A stretch of 41,747 nucleotides of DNA from an uncultured Bacteroidales bacterium (GTDB lineage Bacteria > Bacteroidota > Bacteroidia > Bacteroidales > UBA7960). The stretch's first letter is position 1; each line of letters starts with the position of its first letter. Under the pieces are notes generated by a model. That model was given only the letters and a program-made list of their open reading frames with translations. It did not search any database and had not been told where the DNA came from. The stretch is from NCBI GenBank assembly GCA_964465275.1, contig CAYXIT010000017.1, positions 2,236 to 43,982 on the forward strand, read 5' to 3'. Made by a program: the position numbers and the translations under genes. This document shows, in pieces, positions 9,305 to 20,327 of the stretch.

Positions 9305-9802
9305 TCAACGCCACCAGTGCAATATGCCCAGAGCAATTATACCCAGTACAAGCATTACAATAATGGTAATAATTACTTTTCGACTACGTTTTAAAAGACG
9401 GTTCTCTCTTTTTATATGATTCTCAAAACTGATGCGGCGTAAAATATTACGAATACGCTCAACTGCGCCTTCTGATTTTACCACATAATCATAAGCTCCG
9501 AGTCTGATGGTTTGTGTGGCAACCTCAAGTTTATCAACAGAGGTAAGAAATACAACTTGTACATCATCATCCTGCCTTTTTATTTCTTTAAGAACATCCA
9601 TGCCATCTTTCTTGTCTTCTCCCAAAAGGTAATCAAGTAAAATAACGTCCGGCTTCAGGTGCATATGCTTAATACATTGCTCTCCGCTGGAAAACATACG
9701 TATGTTCATATAATTTCTTTTCTCAAGACTATGGCTCAGAACCTTGGCATAGGCTTCATCATCCTCCACAATAAAAATCAGTGTATAGTCAGGCTTATTC
9801 AT
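9305..9802 (-). CDS. orphan response-regulator receiver domain with a C-terminal transmembrane helix and no output domain
   Basis: Acidic pocket IFIVEDDE, putative phospho-acceptor Asp in DVILLDYLL, then FLTSV and YDYVVK. The protein ends in RKVIITIIVMLVLGIIALGILHWWR, a hydrophobic helix. Confidence 0.8.
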   Translation of the reverse strand: MNKPDYTLIFIVEDDEAYAKVLSHSLEKRNYMNIRMFSSGEQCIKHMHLKPDVILLDYLLGEDKKDGMDVLKEIKRQDDDVQVVFLTSVDKLEVATQTIRLGAYDYVVKSEGAVERIRNILRRISFENHIKRENRLLKRSRKVIITIIVMLVLGIIALGILHWWR

Positions 9803-10078
9803 ACACCCTTTTTAAATGATACTTTATATACGTTAACGAATTTAATACATTTTTTTAATGATATTTGGAATTAAAAAATAAAAACTTAACTTGCAGCCCG
9901 AAAACCAGAAATACATCCTTTCATCCCGATCCGAAAACAGCAAAAAAGTATTATATGAAATTTTTATGCAGACTGAATAAAAATAAGAGCATATATGTAC
10001 TGATTAACAGATTTTTACCTTTTTATTTAACCTGATTTTAAAAACAGGCAGATTCTTCTTCAATCCGCTTCGTATTTA

Positions 10079-10086
10079 TATATTTG
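10079..10086 (+). promoter_or_regulatory. candidate -7 promoter element (TATATTTG) for the cytochrome/sulfur operon
   Basis: Perfect TAnnTTTG match 97 nt upstream of the ATG at 10184, inside a 381-bp AT-rich divergent intergenic region. No convincing -33 TTTG was found. Confidence 0.3.
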
Positions 10087-10183
10087 CCTAATTAGATATG
10101 TTGGCAATATTTCATTGTATATGCATATAACAATCAATTAAATACCAACAGCTTAACCCTATCAGCAATATAATTTTAATTGT

Positions 10184-11761
10184 ATGAAGAATACCGTAAC
10201 ATTTATTCTTTCGGTTGTTGTACCCCTGGTGATTATTACTGTTGTATTACGGGATGCATCGCAGGACAACAAACTTCTGGCTGAATTGAAAGAAGAATAC
10301 AGCGAGCCGCACATTCCCAGTGTTGATCACAGCAAGCATGAGGTATTGCAACGTGATTTCGACAATCCCCATGAAATCACAGCCACATGTCTATCATGCC
10401 ATACCGAGCGTGGCGAAGAATTGCTCAACAGCTTTCATTTCACATGGGAAAGGGAAGATTTTATTGAGGGCAGAGGAGTAACATACCTTGGAAAGAAAAA
10501 CCTGTTAAATAACTTCTGCACAGGTATTTTCTCCAATGAATCTACCTGTAACCGCTGCCACGCAGGATATGGATGGGAAGATATGAGTTTTGATTTTACC
10601 AACCAGTACAATGTGGATTGCCTGGTTTGTCATGACAATACCGGTACCTATGAAAAACTAAGGGGTGGAGCGGGCTATCCCGAACCCAACCAGGATTTTC
10701 AAACCATTGTGCAAAATGTTGGAAGACCTACGAAAAGCAATTGCGGATATTGTCACTTCCACGGAGGCGGAGGTAATAACGTAAAGCACGGCGACCTTGA
10801 AGAAGCCCTGCTTACTGCTTCGCGCCAGGTAGATGTGCATATGGGCGTAGACGGTGGAAATATGGACTGTGTAGATTGCCATACAGCTACCAATCATAAG
10901 ATGCTTGGAAGATACTATGGTGTATCATCATCCGATACGCGGCGTGCAACCTGCGAGCAATGCCATACTGCAGTACCCCACATTGATAATATGCTCAATA
11001 CACATGTTGAAAAAATTGCCTGTCAAACCTGCCATATACCGGAATATGCCAAAGTTAATGCTACCAAAATGTACTGGGACTGGTCAACTGCCGGTGAACT
11101 GGAAGACGGAAGAGCTTTTGAACTTTACGATGAACAGGGTAACATCATTTATCAATCCATTAAAGGTGATGCTACCTGGCAAACCAATGTGGAACCCGAA
11201 TACCTCTGGTTTAACGGCACAGCTGATCACTTCCTTTTATCGGATAAGGTTGATACGACAGCAGCTTTTCTAAAGATCAATACACTTTTGGGAAATGCTG
11301 CCGATCCCAGGTCGCGTATTTACCCTGTTAAGGTACACCGTGGCCGCCAACCTTACGATCCTGTGCATCTTTCTATTTTACAGGCCAAACTCTGGGATCG
11401 TGAAGAAGGTAAAGGAGCACTCTGGCTCGACCTTGACTGGGAAAGAGCTCTGATTGAAGGAATGAAATACCTTGACAGACCTTACAGCGGGCAGTGGGAT
11501 TTCGTTGATACCGAGATGTACCTTCCGGTAAATCATATGGTTTCACCTGCCAGTGAAGCATTGCAATGCCAGGACTGTCATTCGCGTGAAAACGGACGTA
11601 TGCAGTTTGTTGAAGGAACTTACATACCGGGCAAAACTTCAAAGGCTGCAATCGACAATTTAGGTGTAGTGCTCATCATACTTTCATTTTTGGGTGTACT
11701 AACCCATGCTGTCATAAGATTTATTTCCTCAAAAAAACTGAAAGATTCAACTTCTGATTAA
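10184..11761 (+). CDS. octaheme c-type cytochrome, tetrathionate reductase (Otr) family, with N- and C-terminal hydrophobic helices
   Basis: Eight CXXCH motifs: CLSCH, CNRCH, CLVCH, CGYCH, CVDCH, CEQCH, CQTCH, CQDCH. Otr-like signatures are NNFCTGIFSNESTCNRCHAGYGW, CLVCHDNTGTY and CHFHGGGGNNVKHGDLE. N-terminal helix is FILSVVVPLVIITVVL; C-terminal helix is LGVVLIILSFLGVLTHAVIRFI, followed by KKLK. Confidence 0.85.
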   Translation: MKNTVTFILSVVVPLVIITVVLRDASQDNKLLAELKEEYSEPHIPSVDHSKHEVLQRDFDNPHEITATCLSCHTERGEELLNSFHFTWEREDFIEGRGVTYLGKKNLLNNFCTGIFSNESTCNRCHAGYGWEDMSFDFTNQYNVDCLVCHDNTGTYEKLRGGAGYPEPNQDFQTIVQNVGRPTKSNCGYCHFHGGGGNNVKHGDLEEALLTASRQVDVHMGVDGGNMDCVDCHTATNHKMLGRYYGVSSSDTRRATCEQCHTAVPHIDNMLNTHVEKIACQTCHIPEYAKVNATKMYWDWSTAGELEDGRAFELYDEQGNIIYQSIKGDATWQTNVEPEYLWFNGTADHFLLSDKVDTTAAFLKINTLLGNAADPRSRIYPVKVHRGRQPYDPVHLSILQAKLWDREEGKGALWLDLDWERALIEGMKYLDRPYSGQWDFVDTEMYLPVNHMVSPASEALQCQDCHSRENGRMQFVEGTYIPGKTSKAAIDNLGVVLIILSFLGVLTHAVIRFISSKKLKDSTSD

Positions 11762-11771
11762 TTTAACAGCC

Positions 11772-12503
11772 ATGGCAAAAAAAGAAAAAGTATATATATA
11801 TAAATCTTACGAAAGATTCTGGCACTGGACCCAGGCTTTTCTTGTGTTTTTTCTTGCATTAACCGGCTTTGAAGTGCATGGTTCCTTTACCTTCTTTGGA
11901 TTTGAAGATGCCGTTGACCTCCATAACAAGGCAGCCTGGGCATTTATCATTCTTACCATATTTACCATCTTCTGGCATTTTACCACAGGTGAATGGAAAC
12001 AATACATGCCCACTACAGAAAACCTGAGGGCGCAGGCAGAGTATTATATTTTTGGTATTTTCCGTAATGCTCCCCATCCTACACGTAAAACTGTACTCAG
12101 CAAACTTAATCCCCTGCAAAGATTGGTTTATCTTTCTTTGAAAATACTGGTGTTTCCGGTTATGATAGCCAGTGGACTGGCTTATATGTATTACCGGTTT
12201 TTCGGCCAGGGAGAAGTAAAACAACTGGGAATTGAAAGCCTGGAAAGAGTTGCCCTGGCACATACCATCGGGGCATATATTCTTATTGCTTTTGTTATTG
12301 TACATTTATATTTGATTACTACAGGGCATACGCTTACATCAAACCTGAAAGCGATGATTACGGGGTGGGAAGAACTGGAATCAGATGAGGGTGAAGTTCC
12401 TGAATCAGAAACATCTAAAGATCCTGTCGGAGAAAGAATAGATAAACCTGGTGATACTTCAAAAGTTAAACCAGATAGCTATGATGATAAAACGGAAATT
12501 TAA
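11772..12503 (+). CDS. membrane cytochrome b subunit (Ni/Fe-hydrogenase/thiosulfate-reductase b-type cytochrome family)
   Basis: About four TM helices with conserved His positions (ERFWHWTQAFLVFF, DLHNKAAW, LAHTIGAYILIAFVIVHLY). It starts 10 nt after the cytochrome c stop and has an acidic C-terminal tail. Confidence 0.75.
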   Translation: MAKKEKVYIYKSYERFWHWTQAFLVFFLALTGFEVHGSFTFFGFEDAVDLHNKAAWAFIILTIFTIFWHFTTGEWKQYMPTTENLRAQAEYYIFGIFRNAPHPTRKTVLSKLNPLQRLVYLSLKILVFPVMIASGLAYMYYRFFGQGEVKQLGIESLERVALAHTIGAYILIAFVIVHLYLITTGHTLTSNLKAMITGWEELESDEGEVPESETSKDPVGERIDKPGDTSKVKPDSYDDKTEI

Positions 12504-12519
12504 ACCAACTCACAAAAAC

Positions 12520-13767
12520 ATGAAAAGGTTTACAATCTTTACTGCATTGCTGGCAATATCCTTAGCAGCCGGCGCACAACTCTCACTTAATGCAGATATT
12601 AGCCCGCGTGCTGAACTCAGGCATGGATACAGAACCCTTCCCGGGCCCAATGATGAGGCAGCAGGTCATATAAACCAAAGAACCCGTCTGGGACTTGGTT
12701 ATGATGTTGAGAATTTTCGCCTGCATATTTCATTTCAGGATGTAAGAGTATGGGGGCAGGATCCTTTGCTTACAAACATCCCATCTCTGTCTGTTCATGA
12801 AGCATGGGCTGAGATGATGTTTAACAACAATCTTTCCCTGAAGATTGGCCGTCAGGAATTGAAATACGATAACCAGCGTTTTCTTTCTTTCAACGACTGG
12901 CAGGTATATGGGCGGAAGCATGATCTGGCTCTGCTGAAATTCAAATCCGATATATGGGAGTTACACGTTGCTTCAGCTTTCAACCAGGAATGGTCTGCTT
13001 ACACCCAACTTTTCGGAACTGATTATGATATTCCCAGTTATAAACTCATGAATTTTGTCTGGTATAACACCCGTCTTTCCGAAACAGCAAAACTATCGCT
13101 GCTTGCCCTGTTTGACAGTTATGAAAATCCGGGAAACAGTGAGCAATTAAATACAAGAGCTACGTGGTCAGCATATCTGAATATGGATATTGATGCTGTT
13201 AATCTTGTTTTTAACCCGGCCTATCAGCACGGAAAAAACCGTTTCGGCAATGGTATAAGAGCGTTTTATTTCAGACTTGAAGGAAGCATGGGTGTTGCTG
13301 ACAATGTAAGATCAACCCTGGGGATGGAACTTTTTTCAGGAAATGATTACACTGACCTTTCTGATGATACAAATCGTGCATTTGATCCATTATATGGTGC
13401 CGGGCATGCCAATGCCGGTTTTATGGATTACTTCACAAATATACCCGTGAATACTGCCGGTGCCGGTTTGGTGAATCCTTACCTGAAAAACCGCATTCGT
13501 CTGAACCCACGCACCGCGTTTAATGCTGATCTGCATTTTTTCTTCCTGCAAAACAATTACGTTCAGAACAACGAAACCATCAATAAATACCTGGGTACCG
13601 AAATTGACCTTACACTCAACTACAGGTTTAATGATTTTACAAATATAATCGGTGGATTTTCAACAATGTTCGGGTCAGAATCCATGGAAATAATAAAAGG
13701 GGGCAGCAAGGATGAGTTTGCTTACTTCATGTATGTAATGATGAGAATAAGGCCCAGGTTCTTATAA
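12520..13767 (+). CDS. outer-membrane porin, alginate-export-like beta-barrel
   Basis: The start was moved to the ATG at 12520, which gives signal peptide MKRFTIFTALLAISLAAGAQ. The track ORF start at 12451 would overlap the cytochrome b gene. It has beta-barrel-like alternating segments and ends in an aromatic-containing motif (MRIRPRFL). The family assignment is recalled, not verified. Confidence 0.65.
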   Translation: MKRFTIFTALLAISLAAGAQLSLNADISPRAELRHGYRTLPGPNDEAAGHINQRTRLGLGYDVENFRLHISFQDVRVWGQDPLLTNIPSLSVHEAWAEMMFNNNLSLKIGRQELKYDNQRFLSFNDWQVYGRKHDLALLKFKSDIWELHVASAFNQEWSAYTQLFGTDYDIPSYKLMNFVWYNTRLSETAKLSLLALFDSYENPGNSEQLNTRATWSAYLNMDIDAVNLVFNPAYQHGKNRFGNGIRAFYFRLEGSMGVADNVRSTLGMELFSGNDYTDLSDDTNRAFDPLYGAGHANAGFMDYFTNIPVNTAGAGLVNPYLKNRIRLNPRTAFNADLHFFFLQNNYVQNNETINKYLGTEIDLTLNYRFNDFTNIIGGFSTMFGSESMEIIKGGSKDEFAYFMYVMMRIRPRFL

Positions 13768-13806: not shown

Positions 13807-14892
13807 ATGAAACGTATACATTTTTTTCGTCTGGCATTATTGCTTCTCCTGATCCCGGTATTGCTGGTTTCCTGTTCAGAAAGACAAGCCCAAACCGAAC
13901 AGGAAAGTGAAATAAACGAAGTAGAAATCCTTTTGCAATATCTTGAGGAGAACGGAAATATTGTAAATGAACCTTCCATTCCTTTTTTTGTAAATGCCGA
14001 AGAGGTTCACAACAACATGAACGGATCCAACTATCATGTTGTGGATGTAAGGTCACCACGTGAATTCAAACGCGGTCATATTGAAAATGCCGTGAATGTG
14101 CAACCCGAAAATATCCTGGATTATTTTGAGAACAGAATTGAACCCAACAGCTTTGAAAAAATTGTTATTGTTTGTAACAACTCTATGCTTTCGGGTTATG
14201 TAACAGCAATTTTAAGAATGCTGGGTTACAATAATACCTTTAACATGCGTTTTGGCCTGAGTTCATGGCACGATGATATTGCACGCCGTGCATGGTTTGC
14301 GAATATTTCCAGTGATCTGGTGGGCAGGCTTGAAACCACACCCCATCCCAAAAATGATCCCGGCAGTCTGCCGGTAATTAATACCGGCAAGACCAGCGGA
14401 TACGATATCCTGAGAGAACGGGCCCTGGAAGCACTAAATATCAACTGGGATGATGTAAGCATCAATTATCTTGATATTATTGAGGAGGCAGAGAACTATT
14501 ATGTAATAAATTACTGGCCTCAGGCATTATATGATCAGGGACACCTGCCGGGAGCCATTCAATACAATCCCAAGAAATCATTTCACAGTGAAGAGGATAT
14601 TTTTACCCTACCTGTCGATCAACCTTTGGTGGTATATTGTTTTACAGGTCAAAATGCAGCCTATGCAAGTGCATTCCTTTCTCTGATGGGGTATGATTTC
14701 AGAAGTCTTGATTATGGTGCCAACAGCTTTATTCACGAAACCATGATCAATACCCAACCTGCTGGCAGGGCTTTTTCAGAGATTCATGTAAAAAATTACC
14801 CCCTGGTAAGGGACGGGCTCCTTCAACCTGCAGATCCCGCAGCTCAACCTGAAGAGAAAGAGGAGGTGGTTACGGCGCAGGGAGGATGCTAG
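13807..14892 (+). CDS. lipoprotein with tandem rhodanese domains and a C-terminal -AQGGC tail
   Basis: Lipobox LLVSC. Two rhodanese modules: HVVDVRSPREFKRGHIENAVNV...IVIVCNNSMLS and ...QGHLPGAIQY...VVYCFTGQNAAYA. A Pro/Glu-rich linker LLQPADPAAQPEEKEEVVT precedes the terminal AQGGC. Confidence 0.8.
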   Translation: MKRIHFFRLALLLLLIPVLLVSCSERQAQTEQESEINEVEILLQYLEENGNIVNEPSIPFFVNAEEVHNNMNGSNYHVVDVRSPREFKRGHIENAVNVQPENILDYFENRIEPNSFEKIVIVCNNSMLSGYVTAILRMLGYNNTFNMRFGLSSWHDDIARRAWFANISSDLVGRLETTPHPKNDPGSLPVINTGKTSGYDILRERALEALNINWDDVSINYLDIIEEAENYYVINYWPQALYDQGHLPGAIQYNPKKSFHSEEDIFTLPVDQPLVVYCFTGQNAAYASAFLSLMGYDFRSLDYGANSFIHETMINTQPAGRAFSEIHVKNYPLVRDGLLQPADPAAQPEEKEEVVTAQGGC

Positions 14893-14903
14893 GGAAGTAG
14901 AAT

Positions 14904-15118
14904 GGTTATTGGGTTAGTAAGTTATTAGGGTTTTAGTTTAATGAGTAGTAAAGGATTTAGCTGCAGAGCAGCGACAATATTTGTAATCATTTTCATTGCA
15001 CTAAAGTACTCAATGGATCTATTGCCTATTTGAAAAAAGCCAAAGAAGAAAACACTATAAAGAAAACCTAAATAACCCATTAACCCAATAACTCAATAAC
15101 CTAATAACTCAATAACCC
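14904..15118. repeat. inverted arrays of an 8-mer (AATAACYY) flanking about 140 nt; candidate long hairpin or MITE-like element
   Basis: The right arm has six tandem 8-mers at 15071-15118 (aataaccc attaaccc aataactc aataacct aataactc aataaccc), ending 6 nt before the ATG at 15125. The left arm, 14904-14932 (ggttatt gggttagt aagttatt agggtt), is the imperfect reverse complement. An inner 5-bp hairpin gctgc-aga-gcagc lies at 14961-14973. Confidence 0.7.
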
Positions 15119-15124
15119 ATACAT

Positions 15125-15679
15125 ATGCAAAATAAACCAACCCCAAACCGAGCCCCTGGCGAGCTCAGCGAAGCTAAACCCTTTATGAACCCATACCTGG
15201 CAGGTTTTCTGCTGGGACTGGTTTTACTGGCATCATTTGTTATAGTGGGTCGTGGCCTGGGTGCCAGTGGCGCCGCAAAGGATGTAATGGTAGCAGGAGT
15301 AATGAACGCAGCACCTGAATATGTTCAGGAGAAACCCTTCTATGAGCCGTATCTTGCAGCCGAAGAAAGCCCGATACGCTCCTGGCTGGTTTATCTGGCC
15401 ATTGGCGTGATTGTTGGCGGCTTTGTTAGCGGTGCCTCATCAAATCGTTTAGGATTTAAAATGGAACGCGGACCGCGCATCAATGCTCCTACCCGGGCAA
15501 TTTTTGCCCTTGCAGGCGGATTATTGTTCGGACTGGGTGCCCAGTTCGGCCGGGGCTGCACAAGTGGTGCGGCATTAAGCGGAATGGCGGTACTTTCTAC
15601 CGGCGGCATCCTTACCATAATGATGATATTTGGCAGCGGATACCTGGTCGCTTACTTTTTCAGGAGGTTGTGGATATAG
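15125..15679 (+). CDS. YeeE/YedE-family sulfur-compound transport protein, first half-channel
   Basis: About four hydrophobic segments with family motifs VGRGLGASGA and GRGCTSGAALSG. This second motif holds the only Cys in the protein. Confidence 0.8.
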   Translation: MQNKPTPNRAPGELSEAKPFMNPYLAGFLLGLVLLASFVIVGRGLGASGAAKDVMVAGVMNAAPEYVQEKPFYEPYLAAEESPIRSWLVYLAIGVIVGGFVSGASSNRLGFKMERGPRINAPTRAIFALAGGLLFGLGAQFGRGCTSGAALSGMAVLSTGGILTIMMIFGSGYLVAYFFRRLWI

Positions 15680-15817: not shown

Positions 15818-17047
15818 ATGGCACCTTTTATCCCCGAAGGATTAGTAAATCCCCAACTGAGTCTGTTCTTTGCCCTGGTACTGGGTATTGGTTTCGGTTA
15901 TGCGCTTGAACAGGCCGGTTTTTCATCATCACGTAAGCTGGCCGGTGTATTTTACGGCTATGACTTTGTTGTATTGCGTGTGTTTTTCACTGCAGGTATT
16001 ACAGCCATGATCGGACTGCTATTTCTCAGCTTTATGGGTTGGATTGATATGAGCCTTGTATATATTAACCCGCTTTATGTATGGTCGGCAATAATAGGCG
16101 GAGCCATTATGGGAGTCGGTTTTATACTGGGTGGTTATTGCCCCGGCACCAGTATTGTAGCTGCTACTGTGGGCAAAATTGATGCAATGCTTTTTCTGGC
16201 CGGCTCTGTAATTGGCATTTTCCTTTTCGCTCATTTTTACAGCATATTTGAACCCCTGCATATGGGGTATTTTGAAGGAAATCCATTTATCTATGAAACT
16301 TTTGGAATATCAAGGGCGTGGTTCGGATTCATTATGGTTATGATGGCAGTAATTGCATTTGCCGTAACCCAGCGTATTGAAGACAGGGTTAACAATACAC
16401 CTCCTGCTGTTATTGAGCAGCGCCCGTCATATATAATGCCCGGAATGTTGCTTATCATAGCTATTTTTGCGTTCCTTTTCCTTCCCGAGCAAAGAAAAAG
16501 CAATGCACGTGAAATACCGCCAGATCAATTGCATAGTATGCTCCAGGATGATAAGCGTTTTGTGGATGCTGAAGAGGCAGCGTACAAAATAATCAACGAA
16601 GACCGCAACTTCATTCTTATTGATGTGCGTGAACCCGAAGAGTTTGAAAGATTCTCACTCCCCGGTTCCGTCAATATTACCAAAGATGAAATATTGGGTC
16701 GCAGATACCGTGATTTCTTCAGTGATGCTCCACCTCACAGCAAAAGGGTATTCTATGGTTTTGGTGAGAGTGCTGCAGATCTGGCATGGACAGTGGCTGC
16801 ACGGGCAGGATTTGAAAATATATTTGTGCTGCAGGGCGGATTGAACGGAATGTTTGAGACCCTGTTCAATGGCAACGTGAAACCCGAAGATCATTTAAGT
16901 CTTGATGAAGAATTTGAAACAAGGTTCAGGGCCGAAGCAAGACGATTATTCCTTGAAGGGGAAGCCGTTCCAACTGAACCACAAACACCCGTGCCTATAC
17001 GCACAGTAATTGAATTAGAAACTCCTGGCGGAAGAGGAGGATGTTAA
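15818..17047 (+). CDS. YeeE/YedE second half-channel fused to a rhodanese-like domain lacking the active-site Cys, with a C-terminal -GRGGC tail
   Basis: The N-terminal part (about 225 aa) has about six hydrophobic helices and the motif GFILGGYCPGTS. The C-terminal rhodanese fold reads ILIDVREPEEFERFSLPGSVNI...RVFYGFGESAADLAW...VLQGGLNGM, with Gly where the catalytic Cys normally sits. A Pro-rich linker follows, and the protein ends PGGRGGC. It has only two Cys in total. Confidence 0.8.
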   Translation: MAPFIPEGLVNPQLSLFFALVLGIGFGYALEQAGFSSSRKLAGVFYGYDFVVLRVFFTAGITAMIGLLFLSFMGWIDMSLVYINPLYVWSAIIGGAIMGVGFILGGYCPGTSIVAATVGKIDAMLFLAGSVIGIFLFAHFYSIFEPLHMGYFEGNPFIYETFGISRAWFGFIMVMMAVIAFAVTQRIEDRVNNTPPAVIEQRPSYIMPGMLLIIAIFAFLFLPEQRKSNAREIPPDQLHSMLQDDKRFVDAEEAAYKIINEDRNFILIDVREPEEFERFSLPGSVNITKDEILGRRYRDFFSDAPPHSKRVFYGFGESAADLAWTVAARAGFENIFVLQGGLNGMFETLFNGNVKPEDHLSLDEEFETRFRAEARRLFLEGEAVPTEPQTPVPIRTVIELETPGGRGGC

Positions 17048-17066
17048 ACAACAAAATGATGATATT

Positions 17067-17690
17067 ATGAACTTCAATAAAAATCTAAACAACATCAGTA
17101 TACTGTTTTTCAGTTTTGTTGCCATCATTGTGGTGATCAATCTTTTTACCACAAAAAACTACGGCAGATCAAACGATGAGGTGGTAAGGCTTCTGGATAC
17201 CCATGAATATATGCTTGACTATTATGAACTGCGTAATGCAATATCACAACAGGCTGACAATTACTTATTTATTGATCTGCGAACTGAAACAGAATACGAG
17301 TCAGGTCATATACCCGGAGCAATTAACATTCCCTTTGATCAGTTGCTCGAGAGCAGGAATATAAAAACTGTCAAAAGATCAGGCGATCAAATACCAGTAT
17401 TGTATGCCGGATCAGAATCAAAAGCACAAACTGCCCGTATGTTGCTTCTGGCAAAAGGTCTGGATGCCGGCATCAGGGTAATGGGTGGCAACTACAACAC
17501 AGCTGTGGAGTTTGCCATTGAAGATTTTAAGCCTGCCTTTGCAGCCTATAAAGATGAAAAAGCCAGGTTTGACTACCGCAGATTCATGCGACCCTCCCCT
17601 ACCGGCCAACCTGCTAAAAAACGAGATCAACCGGCAGGTATTATTCCTGCAGTAAATCAACAAACACTCTCTGCTCAGGGTGGTTGCTGA
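17067..17690 (+). CDS. membrane-anchored rhodanese-like protein lacking the active-site Cys, with a C-terminal -AQGGC tail
   Basis: N-terminal anchor ISILFFSFVAIIVVINLF. Rhodanese fold LFIDLRTETEYESGHIPGAINIPF...VLYAGSESKAQTA, with Ala at the catalytic position. A Pro/Gln-rich linker follows, and the protein ends SAQGGC. The terminal Cys is its only cysteine. Confidence 0.8.
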   Translation: MNFNKNLNNISILFFSFVAIIVVINLFTTKNYGRSNDEVVRLLDTHEYMLDYYELRNAISQQADNYLFIDLRTETEYESGHIPGAINIPFDQLLESRNIKTVKRSGDQIPVLYAGSESKAQTARMLLLAKGLDAGIRVMGGNYNTAVEFAIEDFKPAFAAYKDEKARFDYRRFMRPSPTGQPAKKRDQPAGIIPAVNQQTLSAQGGC

Positions 17691-17745: not shown

Positions 17746-17840
17746 AGTTGATATTATTGCCGGTTTATTAATGGCTTCATTGGATTGTGATTTTGCCATT
17801 TTTTTCTTATTTTTAGGAGACAAACGTGAAACTATTTTCG

Positions 17841-20327
17841 ATGGCAATGAATTTCCAGAACAATCCTCAATTACAACTGGCTCACGATTTTGTTGAGCAA
17901 ACCGGCATGAATATTTTTCTTACCGGCCGGGCAGGCACAGGTAAAACCACTTTTCTGCAATACATCAGATCAAATTCTTTCAAACGTTCTGTGGTGGTTG
18001 CACCCACAGGTGTTGCCGCTATCAATGCAGGCGGAGTAACAATACACTCTTTTTTCCAGCTCCCTTTCGGTCCTATTTTACCTGAAGACTCAGAATTCAG
18101 GAGGCAACAGGAAGATCATCGCTTCCATAAACTCAACAAAGAAAAGATCAATATCATCCGCAGTCTCGATCTGCTTATCATTGATGAGATAAGCATGGTG
18201 CGGGCCGATCTTCTGGACGGAATTGATCAGGTGCTGCGACGCTATCGCAACCGGTATAAACCTTTTGGTGGATTACAACTCCTGCTCATCGGCGACCTTC
18301 AGCAATTGGCACCGGTGGTAAAAGATGATGATACTGCCCTGTTGGGAAAATATTACGACAACTTCTTTTTCTTTGGTAGCAAAGCATTACAACAAACAAA
18401 ATACATCAGCATTGAACTTCAGCAAATATACAGGCAAACCGATAAGGAATTCATAGATTTGCTGAACAGAGTGCGAAACAATCAACTTGATCAATATTAC
18501 CTTCAGAAACTTAACCGCCAATACAGGCCCGGCTTTATGCCGGATGAAGATGAAGGATACATAACTCTTACCACCCATAATCAACAGGCCGCACAGATCA
18601 ACCAGACAAGATTAAGATCCTTACGCAGTAGTGTAAGATTCTTTAAAGCATATATTGATGGTGACTTCCCTGAAATGGCCTATCCTACAGAAGAAAGCCT
18701 GAGTCTCAAAACCGGTGCCCAGGTTATGTTTGTAAAGAACGACCCTTCTCCTGAAAAACTTTTCTATAACGGCAAGATTGGAGTAGTGGAAAGTATGGAA
18801 GATGATATGATTTATGTTAAATGCCCCGGAGAGGATTCACTGATAGCCGTAACACCTCTCATGTGGGAAAACCGTCGCTACAAACTAGACCCCGACACCA
18901 AAGAGATACGCGAAAACGTGATCGGTACCTTTACCCAATATCCTTTAAAACTGGCCTGGGCCATTACCATACATAAAAGCCAGGGATTAACCTTTGAGAA
19001 AGCTATAATTGATGCGCAGGCAGCCTTTGCACACGGCCAGGTATATGTAGCACTGAGCCGCTGCAAAACACTCGAAGGACTTGTGCTGAGTTCACGAATC
19101 TCAGGTCAGGCCATAAAAAGCGACATGAGCGTAAAAGATTTTTCTTTTAATATTAAGCAAAATCAGCCTGACGAACAAGTACTTTCCGGTGCACGACTGC
19201 AATTCCAGCATGAGCTGCTCGATGAACTGTTTGACTTCGATCCTGTTCAGCGTCGTCTGAATTATTTGCAAAAGCTCGTCAAAGAAAACATTGGCTCCAT
19301 TGATGAAGGAATCGCTGATATGCTGAAACCTCTCAGTAAAGAACTGGAGGACCTGGCAGGCGTGGGGTCAAAGTTCATGGTGGAGATCAGCAAACATGTA
19401 AAAAATTACGGGCAGATAGAAAATAATATAGCGTTGCAGGATCGTATCAGGAAGGCTTGCAGCTATTTCATTCCCCGGCTCGAAAAGGAAGTGATAAACA
19501 TACTTGAAAATGTAGTGATTGACAGCGATAACAAGCAGGTAAAGAAATCCCTTACCGAAGCTTATGATCGTCTTTTTCATGAGGGAGAGCTGAAACTTGC
19601 CTGCCTGAATGCCTGCACCGAAGGCTTTAAAACCGCAAACTACCTGGAAGTGAGAGCCAAAGCATCCATTGAAAAGACCCGCAGCCGTGAACGAAAACCC
19701 GGCAAATTTGCTGCAGTTTCTGATGTTTCGAACCATCCGCAGCTTCTTGAACAACTGCGCAACTGGCGCAACAGGGCTGCCGTTGAACTTGGCATTCCCA
19801 TTTTCATGATCCTGCCGCGCAAATCCATGATTTCCATCACCAACGAGTTGCCTGCATCTCTCAAGGCACTGAAAGCCATCTATGGCATGGGAAAGAAAAA
19901 GACTGAACAGTTTGGCCCCGATATCATTTCCATCGTGCAGGAATACTGTGCCAACAATGATCTGCAGCCCCAATATGATGCACCCGATACCGGCAAGCCC
20001 GAAAAAAAGCCCAAAGAGAGAAAAAAACCTTCGGCTGAGACCAGCCTTGAGCTTTACAGGCAGGGCAAAACCGTCGGGGAGATTGCAAAGGAAAGAGAAC
20101 TGGCCAAAAGCACCATTGAAGGACATCTCGCCAATTATATTGCTAACGGCGAGATCCCGGTGGAAGATATTGTAACCCCTGAAAAGATACAACCCCTTAT
20201 GGACTATTTTTCAAAATCGGAAGATCACAGCTTGAGCCTTGCACGACAAACCCTGGGAAATGAGTATTCATACCAGGAGATCAGATGTGTTCTGAGCCAC
20301 TACAGGTATAAAAATCAGCTCTTATAA
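17841..20327 (+). CDS. Pif1/RecD-like superfamily-1 helicase with a C-terminal HRDC-like region and a helix-turn-helix region
   Basis: Walker A is LTGRAGTGKTT and Walker B is LLIIDEISMV. AITIHKSQGLTF and VALSRC are typical of Pif1/RecD. The HRDC-like segment is LLEQLRNWRNRAAVELGIPIFMILPRKSM...IYGMGKKKTEQFG, and the HTH-like segment is LYRQGKTVGEIAKERELAKSTIEGHL. The start was set at the first ATG (17841); the track start at 17826 is GTG. Confidence 0.8.
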   Translation: MAMNFQNNPQLQLAHDFVEQTGMNIFLTGRAGTGKTTFLQYIRSNSFKRSVVVAPTGVAAINAGGVTIHSFFQLPFGPILPEDSEFRRQQEDHRFHKLNKEKINIIRSLDLLIIDEISMVRADLLDGIDQVLRRYRNRYKPFGGLQLLLIGDLQQLAPVVKDDDTALLGKYYDNFFFFGSKALQQTKYISIELQQIYRQTDKEFIDLLNRVRNNQLDQYYLQKLNRQYRPGFMPDEDEGYITLTTHNQQAAQINQTRLRSLRSSVRFFKAYIDGDFPEMAYPTEESLSLKTGAQVMFVKNDPSPEKLFYNGKIGVVESMEDDMIYVKCPGEDSLIAVTPLMWENRRYKLDPDTKEIRENVIGTFTQYPLKLAWAITIHKSQGLTFEKAIIDAQAAFAHGQVYVALSRCKTLEGLVLSSRISGQAIKSDMSVKDFSFNIKQNQPDEQVLSGARLQFQHELLDELFDFDPVQRRLNYLQKLVKENIGSIDEGIADMLKPLSKELEDLAGVGSKFMVEISKHVKNYGQIENNIALQDRIRKACSYFIPRLEKEVINILENVVIDSDNKQVKKSLTEAYDRLFHEGELKLACLNACTEGFKTANYLEVRAKASIEKTRSRERKPGKFAAVSDVSNHPQLLEQLRNWRNRAAVELGIPIFMILPRKSMISITNELPASLKALKAIYGMGKKKTEQFGPDIISIVQEYCANNDLQPQYDAPDTGKPEKKPKERKKPSAETSLELYRQGKTVGEIAKERELAKSTIEGHLANYIANGEIPVEDIVTPEKIQPLMDYFSKSEDHSLSLARQTLGNEYSYQEIRCVLSHYRYKNQLL

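Follow-up and report, generated by a model that had tools for sequence, protein, structure and literature searches.

Can a rhodanese domain that has lost its catalytic cysteine still belong to a protein with a reactive thiol, and where would such a thiol be placed? The question is raised by an operon of seven co-oriented genes in a 41,747-nt stretch of DNA from an uncultured Bacteroidales bacterium (GenBank assembly GCA_964465275.1, contig CAYXIT010000017.1, positions 2,236 to 43,982 of the forward strand). We refer to this whole stretch as the window; positions are counted from its first letter. The operon starts with a gene of an octaheme cytochrome c, ends with a gene of a 207-aa rhodanese protein (p207 below), and is located in the plus strand. 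Besides p207, a membrane-anchored protein (17067-17690), two more of its products carry rhodanese domains: a 361-aa tandem-rhodanese lipoprotein (13807-14892) and a 409-aa fusion of the N-half of a YeeE/YedE channel with a rhodanese domain (15818-17047).

The original prediction, made from the letters of the DNA alone, was that the rhodanese domains of the fusion and of p207 had lost the cysteine of the catalytic loop and had kept a cysteine in the tail. This prediction was borne out: Gly314 in the fusion and Ala114 in p207 take the place of the catalytic cysteine in gap-free alignments, and both proteins end in GGC. The pattern suggests that the reactive thiol was probably relocated from a rigid active-site loop to the free C-terminus of a flexible arm.

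Rhodanese domains without a loop cysteine

The rhodanese domains scored above the cut-off of the Pfam Rhodanese model PF00581 (22.2 bits) in all three proteins, with 49.4 bits for the fusion (aa 256-344), 46.5 bits for p207 (aa 62-141) and 110.8 bits for the two domains of the lipoprotein. The lipoprotein has four cysteines, C23 in the lipobox, C123 (14173-14175), C278 (14638-14640) and C361, the last residue of its GGC end (14881-14889). Both of its domains hold a cysteine (C123 and C278) at the catalytic-loop position, just as had been predicted. The fusion has two cysteines, C108 in the channel loop GGYCPG and C409, while C207 is the single cysteine of p207. The Cys-less domains had been counted as two of three; there are indeed two such domains in two of the three proteins, but the total number of rhodanese domains is four, and the fraction is two of four.

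The degenerate active-site loop of the fusion, VFYGFGESAA (16748-16777), aligned without gaps to the Y-C of PDB entry 6mxv. The position of the catalytic cysteine is occupied by Gly314 (16757-16759) within YGFGESA (aa 313-319, 16754-16774), and a profile of the fusion family placed position 314 on the Y-C of both 6mxv domains, again without gaps. The same profile also matched Sud (1qxn, E = 3.8e-5) and PspE (2jtq). In p207, the degenerate loop VLYAGSESKAQTA (aa 111-123, 17397-17435) has Ala114 (17406-17408) at the catalytic position; in a gap-free alignment with the profile of the p207 family, the active rhodanese domain of 3tp9 has its Y-C at Y113-A114. In BLASTP, 'YAGSES' of p207 was aligned to 'YCFTGQ' of the lipoprotein and to 'YGFGES' of the fusion. 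The predicted loop positions were thereby confirmed, with G314 and A114 falling on the catalytic cysteine of active rhodaneses. The fusion and p207 thus have no catalytic loop cysteine of the kind present in the active rhodaneses GlpE, PspE and Sud.

The length of the loop in the Cys-less domains is that of the active six-residue rhodanese loop. The Gly or basic residues of active enzymes are replaced by acidic ones, E317 in the fusion and the nearly invariant E117 in p207. The peptides on which the original prediction was built (YGFGESA, VLYAGSESKAQTA, ILIDVREPEEF, LFIDLRTETEYESGHIPGAINI, VLQGG, VMGG, IVIVCNNSMLS and VVYCFTGQNAAYA) are all present where it had placed them.

Its claim that the rhodanese fold is retained held as well. 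Along with the Pfam scores, AlphaFold2 modelled the Cys-less domains of the fusion and p207 with a predicted local distance difference test (pLDDT) score of about 90 or more, and Foldseek searches with these models returned rhodanese folds with target-normalised template modelling scores up to 0.77-0.80. No dedicated NCBIfam model was found for the fusion or p207, with every match far under the cut-off.

The C-terminal parts of the two Cys-less proteins have the same layout. In the fusion, the YeeE N-half is followed by an H7-like helix, an extra transmembrane helix, the Cys-less rhodanese domain, a helix, a linker and the terminal GGC; in p207, an N-terminal transmembrane anchor is followed by the Cys-less rhodanese domain, a helix, a linker and the terminal GGC. 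The flexible linker and tail of the fusion span aa 381-409 (16958-17044), with GGC at 17036-17044, and have pLDDT values of 46-64 past the helix 362-380. For aa 172-207 of p207, a 35-residue linker with its tail, pLDDT is below 50; the GGC tail (17679-17687) is coded by GGT GGT TGC and is followed by TGA. According to AlphaFold2, the tails of both proteins have a disordered linker of some 30-35 residues.

Conservation of the loop and the tail

We looked for relatives in a survey of 80 genome loci, from Bacteroidales, Lentimicrobiaceae, Flavobacteriaceae, Ignavibacteria, Calditrichia, LCP-89 and other groups, and in an exhaustive profile search of 1.84 billion cluster representatives (50%-identity clusters). 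Among the 85 fusion-type modules of the 80 loci, the catalytic position is occupied by S, A, G or D and never by Cys, and 83 modules have a GGC or GGCx tail. In the protein survey of the fusion family, 116 of 120 proteins end in GGC; of the 121 aligned sequences, 119 have S or G at position 314 and none has Cys there, while G407, G408 and C409 are kept in 117-119 of them.

Proteins related to p207 showed a similar pattern. GGC ends 24 of the 25 members of the p207 family, and none has Cys at the catalytic position. A loop cysteine was seen in one of the 50 p207-type proteins of the 80 loci. The cluster survey produced 118 proteins of about 200 aa, 110 of them with a GGC or GGCx tail; with p207 of the window included, nine of 119 have a loop cysteine. 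Thus, the Cys-less loop together with the GGC tail is a conserved design and not a result of decay. The original prediction also held that the terminal arm carries the only reactive thiol. This is so for most of the modules, since the tail cysteine is the sole one in 53 of 67 fused and in 40 of 50 p207-type proteins, but not for all of them.

The tails of relatives are coded with both Cys codons, many pairs of Gly codons and all three stop codons. The use of both Cys codons and of many Gly codon pairs indicates selection at the protein level, and the variation of Gly, Cys and stop codons ruled out a motif at the nucleotide level. No selenocysteine tail (GG-TGA) was found among 165 tails of rhodanese ORFs (open reading frames) in the fetched loci. 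Variants GGCG, GGCGD and GGCGG do occur among relatives.

In the loci L012 and L013 (~10001-11717), the fusion gene seems to be broken, with a 373-aa ORF ending in ...GGVKR overlapping a 269-aa ORF with an IGGC tail; the lipoprotein of these loci has no tail. The break could come from a frameshift or an insertion, or else from misassembly of these metagenome-assembled genomes (MAGs). The isolate names of the nearest-relative MAGs (CSSed, T3Sed) look like those of sediment samples.

Tail versus loop, and co-variation of the three tails

The source genome (3.79 Mb, 92% complete) has 6279 ORFs of at least 80 aa. Only three of them end in GGC, those of the lipoprotein, the fusion and p207; four further rhodanese proteins are encoded in the genome, none with a GGC tail. 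The GGC endings on the three operon proteins are far beyond chance. With the tail confined to these proteins, a genome-wide sorting or processing signal was excluded.

A strict co-variation of loop-Cys loss with the tail, raised in the original prediction, was rejected, as lipoproteins and some p207-type proteins have both. In the lipoprotein family, as represented in the protein survey, GGC ends 99 of 120 proteins, and the two loop cysteines are retained in 111 and 119 of 121, respectively. Both loop cysteines and the tail occur together in 91 of 121 lipoproteins of that survey and in 27 of 41 lipoproteins of the loci. The 41 also include tailed lipoproteins with altered loop pairs (five D/C, one C/D and two D/S). 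Among p207-type cluster representatives, loop Cys and tail are found together in about 8%. Of the two features, the tail thus stays constant and the loop cysteine varies.

Besides the presence of the tails, we observed that the tails vary together. The residue before GGC is identical in the lipoprotein and p207 in 20 of 36 operons (4.0 expected by shuffling), in the lipoprotein and the fusion in 16 of 37 (4.1 expected), and in the fusion and p207 in 22 of 45 (5.5 expected). None of 5,000 shuffles across operons reached the observed counts; the shuffling ignores kinship of operons, so that there are fewer independent events than were counted. The states in common include Q, I, R, K, S, G, E and A among others. 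The tail codons of the window (GGA GGA TGC, GGA GGA TGT and, in p207, GGT GGT TGC) differ from each other, which argues against recent gene conversion among these tails. The simplest reading of the co-variation is that one partner site would read all three arms, and the three tails look like equivalent arms acting at one site. If they do share a partner site, the arms of p207 and the fusion would be in the same compartment as the exported lipoprotein.

Elsewhere in the same genome (G000:C16:33834-34723, outside the window) two small rhodanese genes adjoin each other. The first product (144 aa) has a loop cysteine (ACPGGVRSS) and finishes in ...GLGCGCGCNTSFDNQQNGCC, a tail rich in cysteine; in the second (141 aa), the catalytic position is taken by Asp, and a CAC motif lies close to the end. 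This pair is another pairing of rhodanese domains with cysteine tails, of a type unlike the GGC arms. Also, contig C64 of this genome encodes MnmH, a tRNA 2-selenouridine synthase with the loop LIHCWRGGMRS.

Split YeeE channel and location of the arms

The channel encoded in the operon consists of two halves, each with a Cys-containing re-entrant loop, that match the N- and C-halves of YeeE. The N-half, aa 41-195 of the fusion, matches positions 10-161 of the Pfam Sulf_transp profile (PF04143). The C-half, a 184-aa protein (15125-15679), matches positions 176-308 and aligns with residues 236-330 of the YeeE structures 8k1r/6leo. The thiosulfate-binding cysteine on the periplasmic side of S. 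thermophila YeeE, C293 (PMC7449682), is matched by C145 of the C-half, whose C-terminal RR aligns with the cytoplasmic end of that YeeE. A search of PDB sequences with the N-half alone gave no YeeE match; as an alignment was obtained for the C-half only, the mapping of the N-half rests on Pfam.

In S. thermophila YeeE, the chain starts outside and ends inside, with H7 linking H1-H6 to H8-H13 (PMC7449682). In the fusion family, aa 1-14 are free of lysine and arginine (K/R), aa 33-41 have two K/R, and aa 74-86 and 140-165 are acidic and almost K/R-free. Then come an H7-like helix (aa 166-185), a K/R-rich loop (aa 186-205) and a further helix (aa 206-221). Such an alternation of loop charges is the pattern expected for the N-half of S. 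thermophila YeeE. The further helix is the extra transmembrane helix of the fusion (16433-16480), with a hydropathy peak of 2.36 and a helix at aa 206-220 in the AlphaFold2 model. Counted against the YeeE structure, the helices would leave the rhodanese domain and the tail of the fusion outside the cytoplasmic membrane.

Natural splits of the fusion agree with this count. In 15 loci, the fusion gene is split right before the extra transmembrane helix, and the split-off rhodanese proteins start with a positively charged signal anchor, e.g. MKRKYIIPILILLLL or MVKKKVAKVL. The p207 equivalent of Yeosuana aromativorans (JCM 12862; locus L040, a split type linked to Psr) likewise begins with a signal anchor. 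A cytoplasmic placement similar to that of YeeD was dropped in view of the helix count against the YeeE structure (PMC7449682) and of the signal-anchored split forms. Judged from the sequences, the rhodanese domain and arm of the fusion are very probably periplasmic; for the domain and arm of p207 the same location is predicted as probable, with somewhat less confidence.

Linkage to reductases

The first two genes of the operon encode an Otr-family octaheme cytochrome c (10184-11761), which scored 562 bits with TIGR04315 (cut-off 375), and a cytochrome b similar to PhsC (11772-12503; 103 bits to PRK15006). Of 68 loci with fused modules, 57 have the genes of the Otr cytochrome and of cytochrome b alongside, and most of the others are on truncated contigs. 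Among 14 loci with split modules, on the other hand, 13 have PsrABC-like molybdoenzyme genes as neighbours. The two loci L024 and L026 each have two full carrier sets side by side, a split set with psrABC-like genes and a fused set with Otr and cytochrome b. It seems that in these loci each reductase has its own dedicated channel and arm set.

In 26 operons, mostly from Ignavibacteria and Calditrichia, the set is reduced to cytochrome c, cytochrome b, the YeeE C-half and the Cys-less fusion. No Cys-loop rhodanese was present in the fetched flanks (up to 10 kb per side) of 25 of these 26 fusion-only operons.

The operon of a related Bacteroidales MAG (L001) adjoins a TusA/DsrE/rhodanese/Hdr-like cluster. 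Near the TusA, DsrE, FlpD and Hdr-like genes, a 167-aa second lipoprotein is encoded (L001:16976-17479, minus strand). Its rhodanese loop, LYSDLHNRS, is Cys-less, and its tail, ...SSGGCGD, is nearer still to the SoxY motif GGCGG.

Proposed role and alternatives

The reading that we favour, with moderate confidence, is that the Cys-less domains are the bodies of membrane-tethered periplasmic carriers of sulfur, working as swinging arms in the manner of SoxY and Sud on a dead rhodanese scaffold. The terminal cysteine would carry sulfane sulfur or a thiosulfonate adduct covalently, as the GGCGG arm of SoxY and the loop cysteine of Sud do. In this operon the arms could be loaded at the two Cys loops of the tandem-rhodanese lipoprotein; alternatively, the arm thiol could react directly with tetrathionate or polysulfide. 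An arm would then deliver sulfur to, or take it from, the adjacent periplasmic quinol-linked reductase made of the Otr octaheme cytochrome and cytochrome b, and would also serve the split YeeE/YedE channel at its periplasmic mouth; one of the arms is fused to this channel. The dead rhodanese body may act as a docking or spacing module. The substrate could be tetrathionate, thiosulfate or polysulfide, and the transfer might run in either direction. A broader statement, that GGC-tipped dead rhodaneses are a new class of protein-bound sulfur carriers, analogous to SoxY and serving Otr or Psr reductases as well as the mouth of a YeeE-type channel, is put forward tentatively, as an idea we hold to be possible rather than probable.

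Several observations weigh against the swinging-arm reading. AlphaFold2 leaves the tail unplaced (pLDDT below 50) and models the membrane half of the fusion poorly when taken alone. The flanks of the p207 anchor are ambiguous and were not used as evidence: net charge puts the N-terminus inside in 59 of 110 relatives, and K/R counts point the opposite way in 49 of 110. There is no TusA-family gene in the 92%-complete genome and hence no cytoplasmic acceptor of that kind. The reading also does not account for a YeeE channel in a respiratory module. Kinship of operons inflates the co-variation counts, as noted above, and past gene conversion could have added to the signal. A free periplasmic thiol could serve other chemistry, for instance with selenium or metals.

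Another explanation, close to the original prediction, would make the lipoprotein the sole true sulfurtransferase and the two Cys-less domains passive docking or scaffold modules loaded by it. Its appeal is that in the window loop cysteines are confined to the lipoprotein, that most of the lipoprotein family keeps them (111 and 119 of 121), and that the three proteins are co-transcribed neighbours; the catalytic competence of the lipoprotein is itself predicted from the presence of its loop cysteines. We consider this explanation unlikely, as the 26 operons with a Cys-less fusion manage without the lipoprotein, 25 of them with no Cys-loop rhodanese in the flanks, and as lipoproteins with D/C, C/D and D/S loops retain the tail. 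Moreover, the lipoprotein bears the same co-evolving tail and seems to be a third arm that also does the loading, not a class apart. The proposed division of labour is therefore upheld with respect to the conserved degeneracy of the two domains; it fails where the lipoprotein is missing or has lost loop cysteines, and one enzyme with two scaffolds may describe this particular operon rather than the general logic of the system. Quite improbable, in our view, is a location of the Cys-less modules in the cytoplasm, where they would replace YeeD/TusA as a 'fourth cysteine' at the inner exit of YeeE. YeeD does sit at the cytoplasmic face of YeeE with one conserved cysteine (PMC11073785), the genome has no TusA-family gene, and the nearest relatives of p207 have more K/R after the transmembrane helix than before it. 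The fused domain, however, falls outside by the helix count on the YeeE structure (PMC7449682), the split forms start with typical signal anchors, the tails co-vary with that of the exported lipoprotein, and an exported Cys-less rhodanese lipoprotein with a GGCGD tail does exist in L001.

About as improbable is a role of the arms in handling selenium, tellurium or a thiophilic metal(loid), for example, with a selenotrisulfide formed between tails and feeding a YedE-type channel or a reductase. Relatives of YedE are tied to selenium transport, and there are weak NCBIfam matches to YedE/FdhT and TsoB models; MnmH is encoded in the genome; in Geobacter, ExtH and ExtI, a rhodanese-like protein and a porin near cytochromes, have been linked to the reduction of selenite and tellurite (PMC5877670); and three thiol arms could chelate. 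Yet the constant neighbours are of the Otr family and PsrABC type, both known from the reduction of sulfur compounds, none of the 165 tails has selenocysteine, the minimal operons make do with a single arm, and the TusA/DsrE/Hdr-like cluster of L001 points to sulfur. Least probable of all, and in our opinion very unlikely, is a regulatory or structural terminal cysteine that would gate the mouth of YeeE by a disulfide or as a plug, link a partner covalently or sense redox state. One arm is directly tethered to the channel, the periplasmic indentation holds C145 of the C-half (equivalent to C293) as a possible disulfide partner, and a free carboxylate with a thiolate could mimic an anionic substrate. 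Three differently anchored arms per operon, the lipoprotein's included, nevertheless exceed the needs of a gate; the linkage to reductases is as strong as that to the channel; and the tail, with its GGCGG variants, resembles the carrier arm of SoxY.

Implications

Rhodaneses without the catalytic cysteine are usually dismissed as inactive docking modules; here the thiol appears to have moved to a flexible terminal arm. For annotation this carries a warning that 'rhodanese-like, no active-site Cys' does not equal the absence of a reactive cysteine. The arm design spans Bacteroidota, Ignavibacteriota, Calditrichota and other groups, and it is tied to a split YeeE channel and to a periplasmic reductase of sulfur compounds.

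If the arm carries sulfur, the Otr octaheme cytochromes, whose natural substrate is unsettled, would get a testable physiological role, and the 'swinging arm' principle of SoxY would extend to a second protein fold. It would also suggest a way in which poorly soluble or reactive sulfur species pass among outer membrane, reductase and channel in anaerobic sediments. Should the broader carrier-class statement be true, the natural substrate of Otr would be a persulfide or thiosulfonate bound to a carrier and not a free anion, and sulfur would cross the envelope via hand-over between tethered cysteines.

Other features of the operon and its surroundings

The third gene of the operon encodes an outer-membrane beta-barrel similar to Alginate_exp (12451-13767; Pfam PF13372, E = 1e-9). 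The ORF as listed, with the start at 12451, overlaps the 3' end of the cytochrome b gene; its true start is probably internal to the listed one. The barrel is also present in the nearest relatives, L004-L006, and is likely the entry point for an anionic sulfur substrate.

A gap of 232 bp (14893-15124) separates the lipoprotein gene from the YeeE C-half gene. Tandem AATAACYY-like 8-mers occupy 15071-15118, immediately 5' of the start codon of the C-half, and reverse-complement-like copies of these 8-mers are seen just past the stop codon of the lipoprotein.

Divergent from the operon is the gene of a response regulator (9305-9802, minus strand) that is receiver-only and has a hydrophobic helix at its C-terminus. 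In L003, a 164-aa Response_reg gene has the same divergent place upstream of the cytochrome, so the pairing is conserved. Directly 3' of the last gene of the operon is a gene of a PIF1-like helicase with HRDC and HTH_40 (17826-20327, plus strand), which appears to be unrelated to the sulfur module.

Comparison with known systems

We found no published description of the GGC-tailed dead-rhodanese architecture in open-access papers and preprints. A close functional parallel is SoxY, where 'GGC' is an accepted functional motif of the swinging arm (PMC11237559). SoxY is periplasmic, has its reactive cysteine in Gly-Gly-Cys on a flexible C-terminal arm and works with c-type cytochromes, and the endings GGCG, GGCGD and GGCGG of some relatives of the operon proteins add to the likeness. 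In lucinid symbionts, a divergent SoxY gene adjoins otr (PMC11237559). The differences are in the scaffold and in its surroundings. The operon proteins have the rhodanese fold, as Pfam and NCBIfam scans gave only rhodanese- and YeeE-related models; they are membrane-anchored or fused to a channel half, with cysteine as the last residue; and no SoxZ partner was seen.

Sud of Wolinella succinogenes is a periplasmic rhodanese that hands polysulfide-sulfur to the quinol-linked sulfur reductase Psr. Like the proteins described here, Sud (PDB 1QXN) has a single periplasmic rhodanese domain, and the split-type relatives adjoin psrABC-like genes. The working cysteine of Sud, however, is that of the active-site loop, and a Cys-tipped tail is absent, while here the loop cysteine is replaced by G314 or A114, the thiol is on the arm, and the protein is anchored.

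With inactive rhodanese homology domains the Cys-less domains share a retained fold and a replaced catalytic cysteine; for example, YGAGDEQ of Alr3790 from Anabaena (PDB 3k9r/2kl3) was aligned with YGFGESA of the fusion. Inactive domains, such as the N-domains of tandem rhodaneses and the docking domains of MAP-kinase phosphatases, are generally seen as docking or regulatory modules. To our knowledge, none of them has a compensating terminal Cys arm or a link to YeeE or to a respiratory reductase.

With respect to the channel, YeeD has one conserved cysteine at the cytoplasmic face of YeeE, and natural fusions of the two exist (PMC11073785). YeeD/TsuB and the proteins of this operon are thus alike in being small one-Cys partners, fusible to the channel, at the mouth of a YeeE-family (YeeE/TsuA) protein. 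In contrast, YeeD has the TusA fold with a CPxP-type cysteine and is fused C-terminally to full-length YeeE; here the fold is that of rhodanese (a Pfam scan gave no TusA match in the three rhodanese proteins), the cysteine is terminal, and the domain is fused past two extra helices to the N-half and predicted to be periplasmic. The channel itself is a pair of YeeE halves comparable to PmpA/PmpB (PMC11582611). Taken by analogy with these systems, the principle of a swinging-arm sulfur carrier is known, and what would be new is the rhodanese scaffold that carries it.

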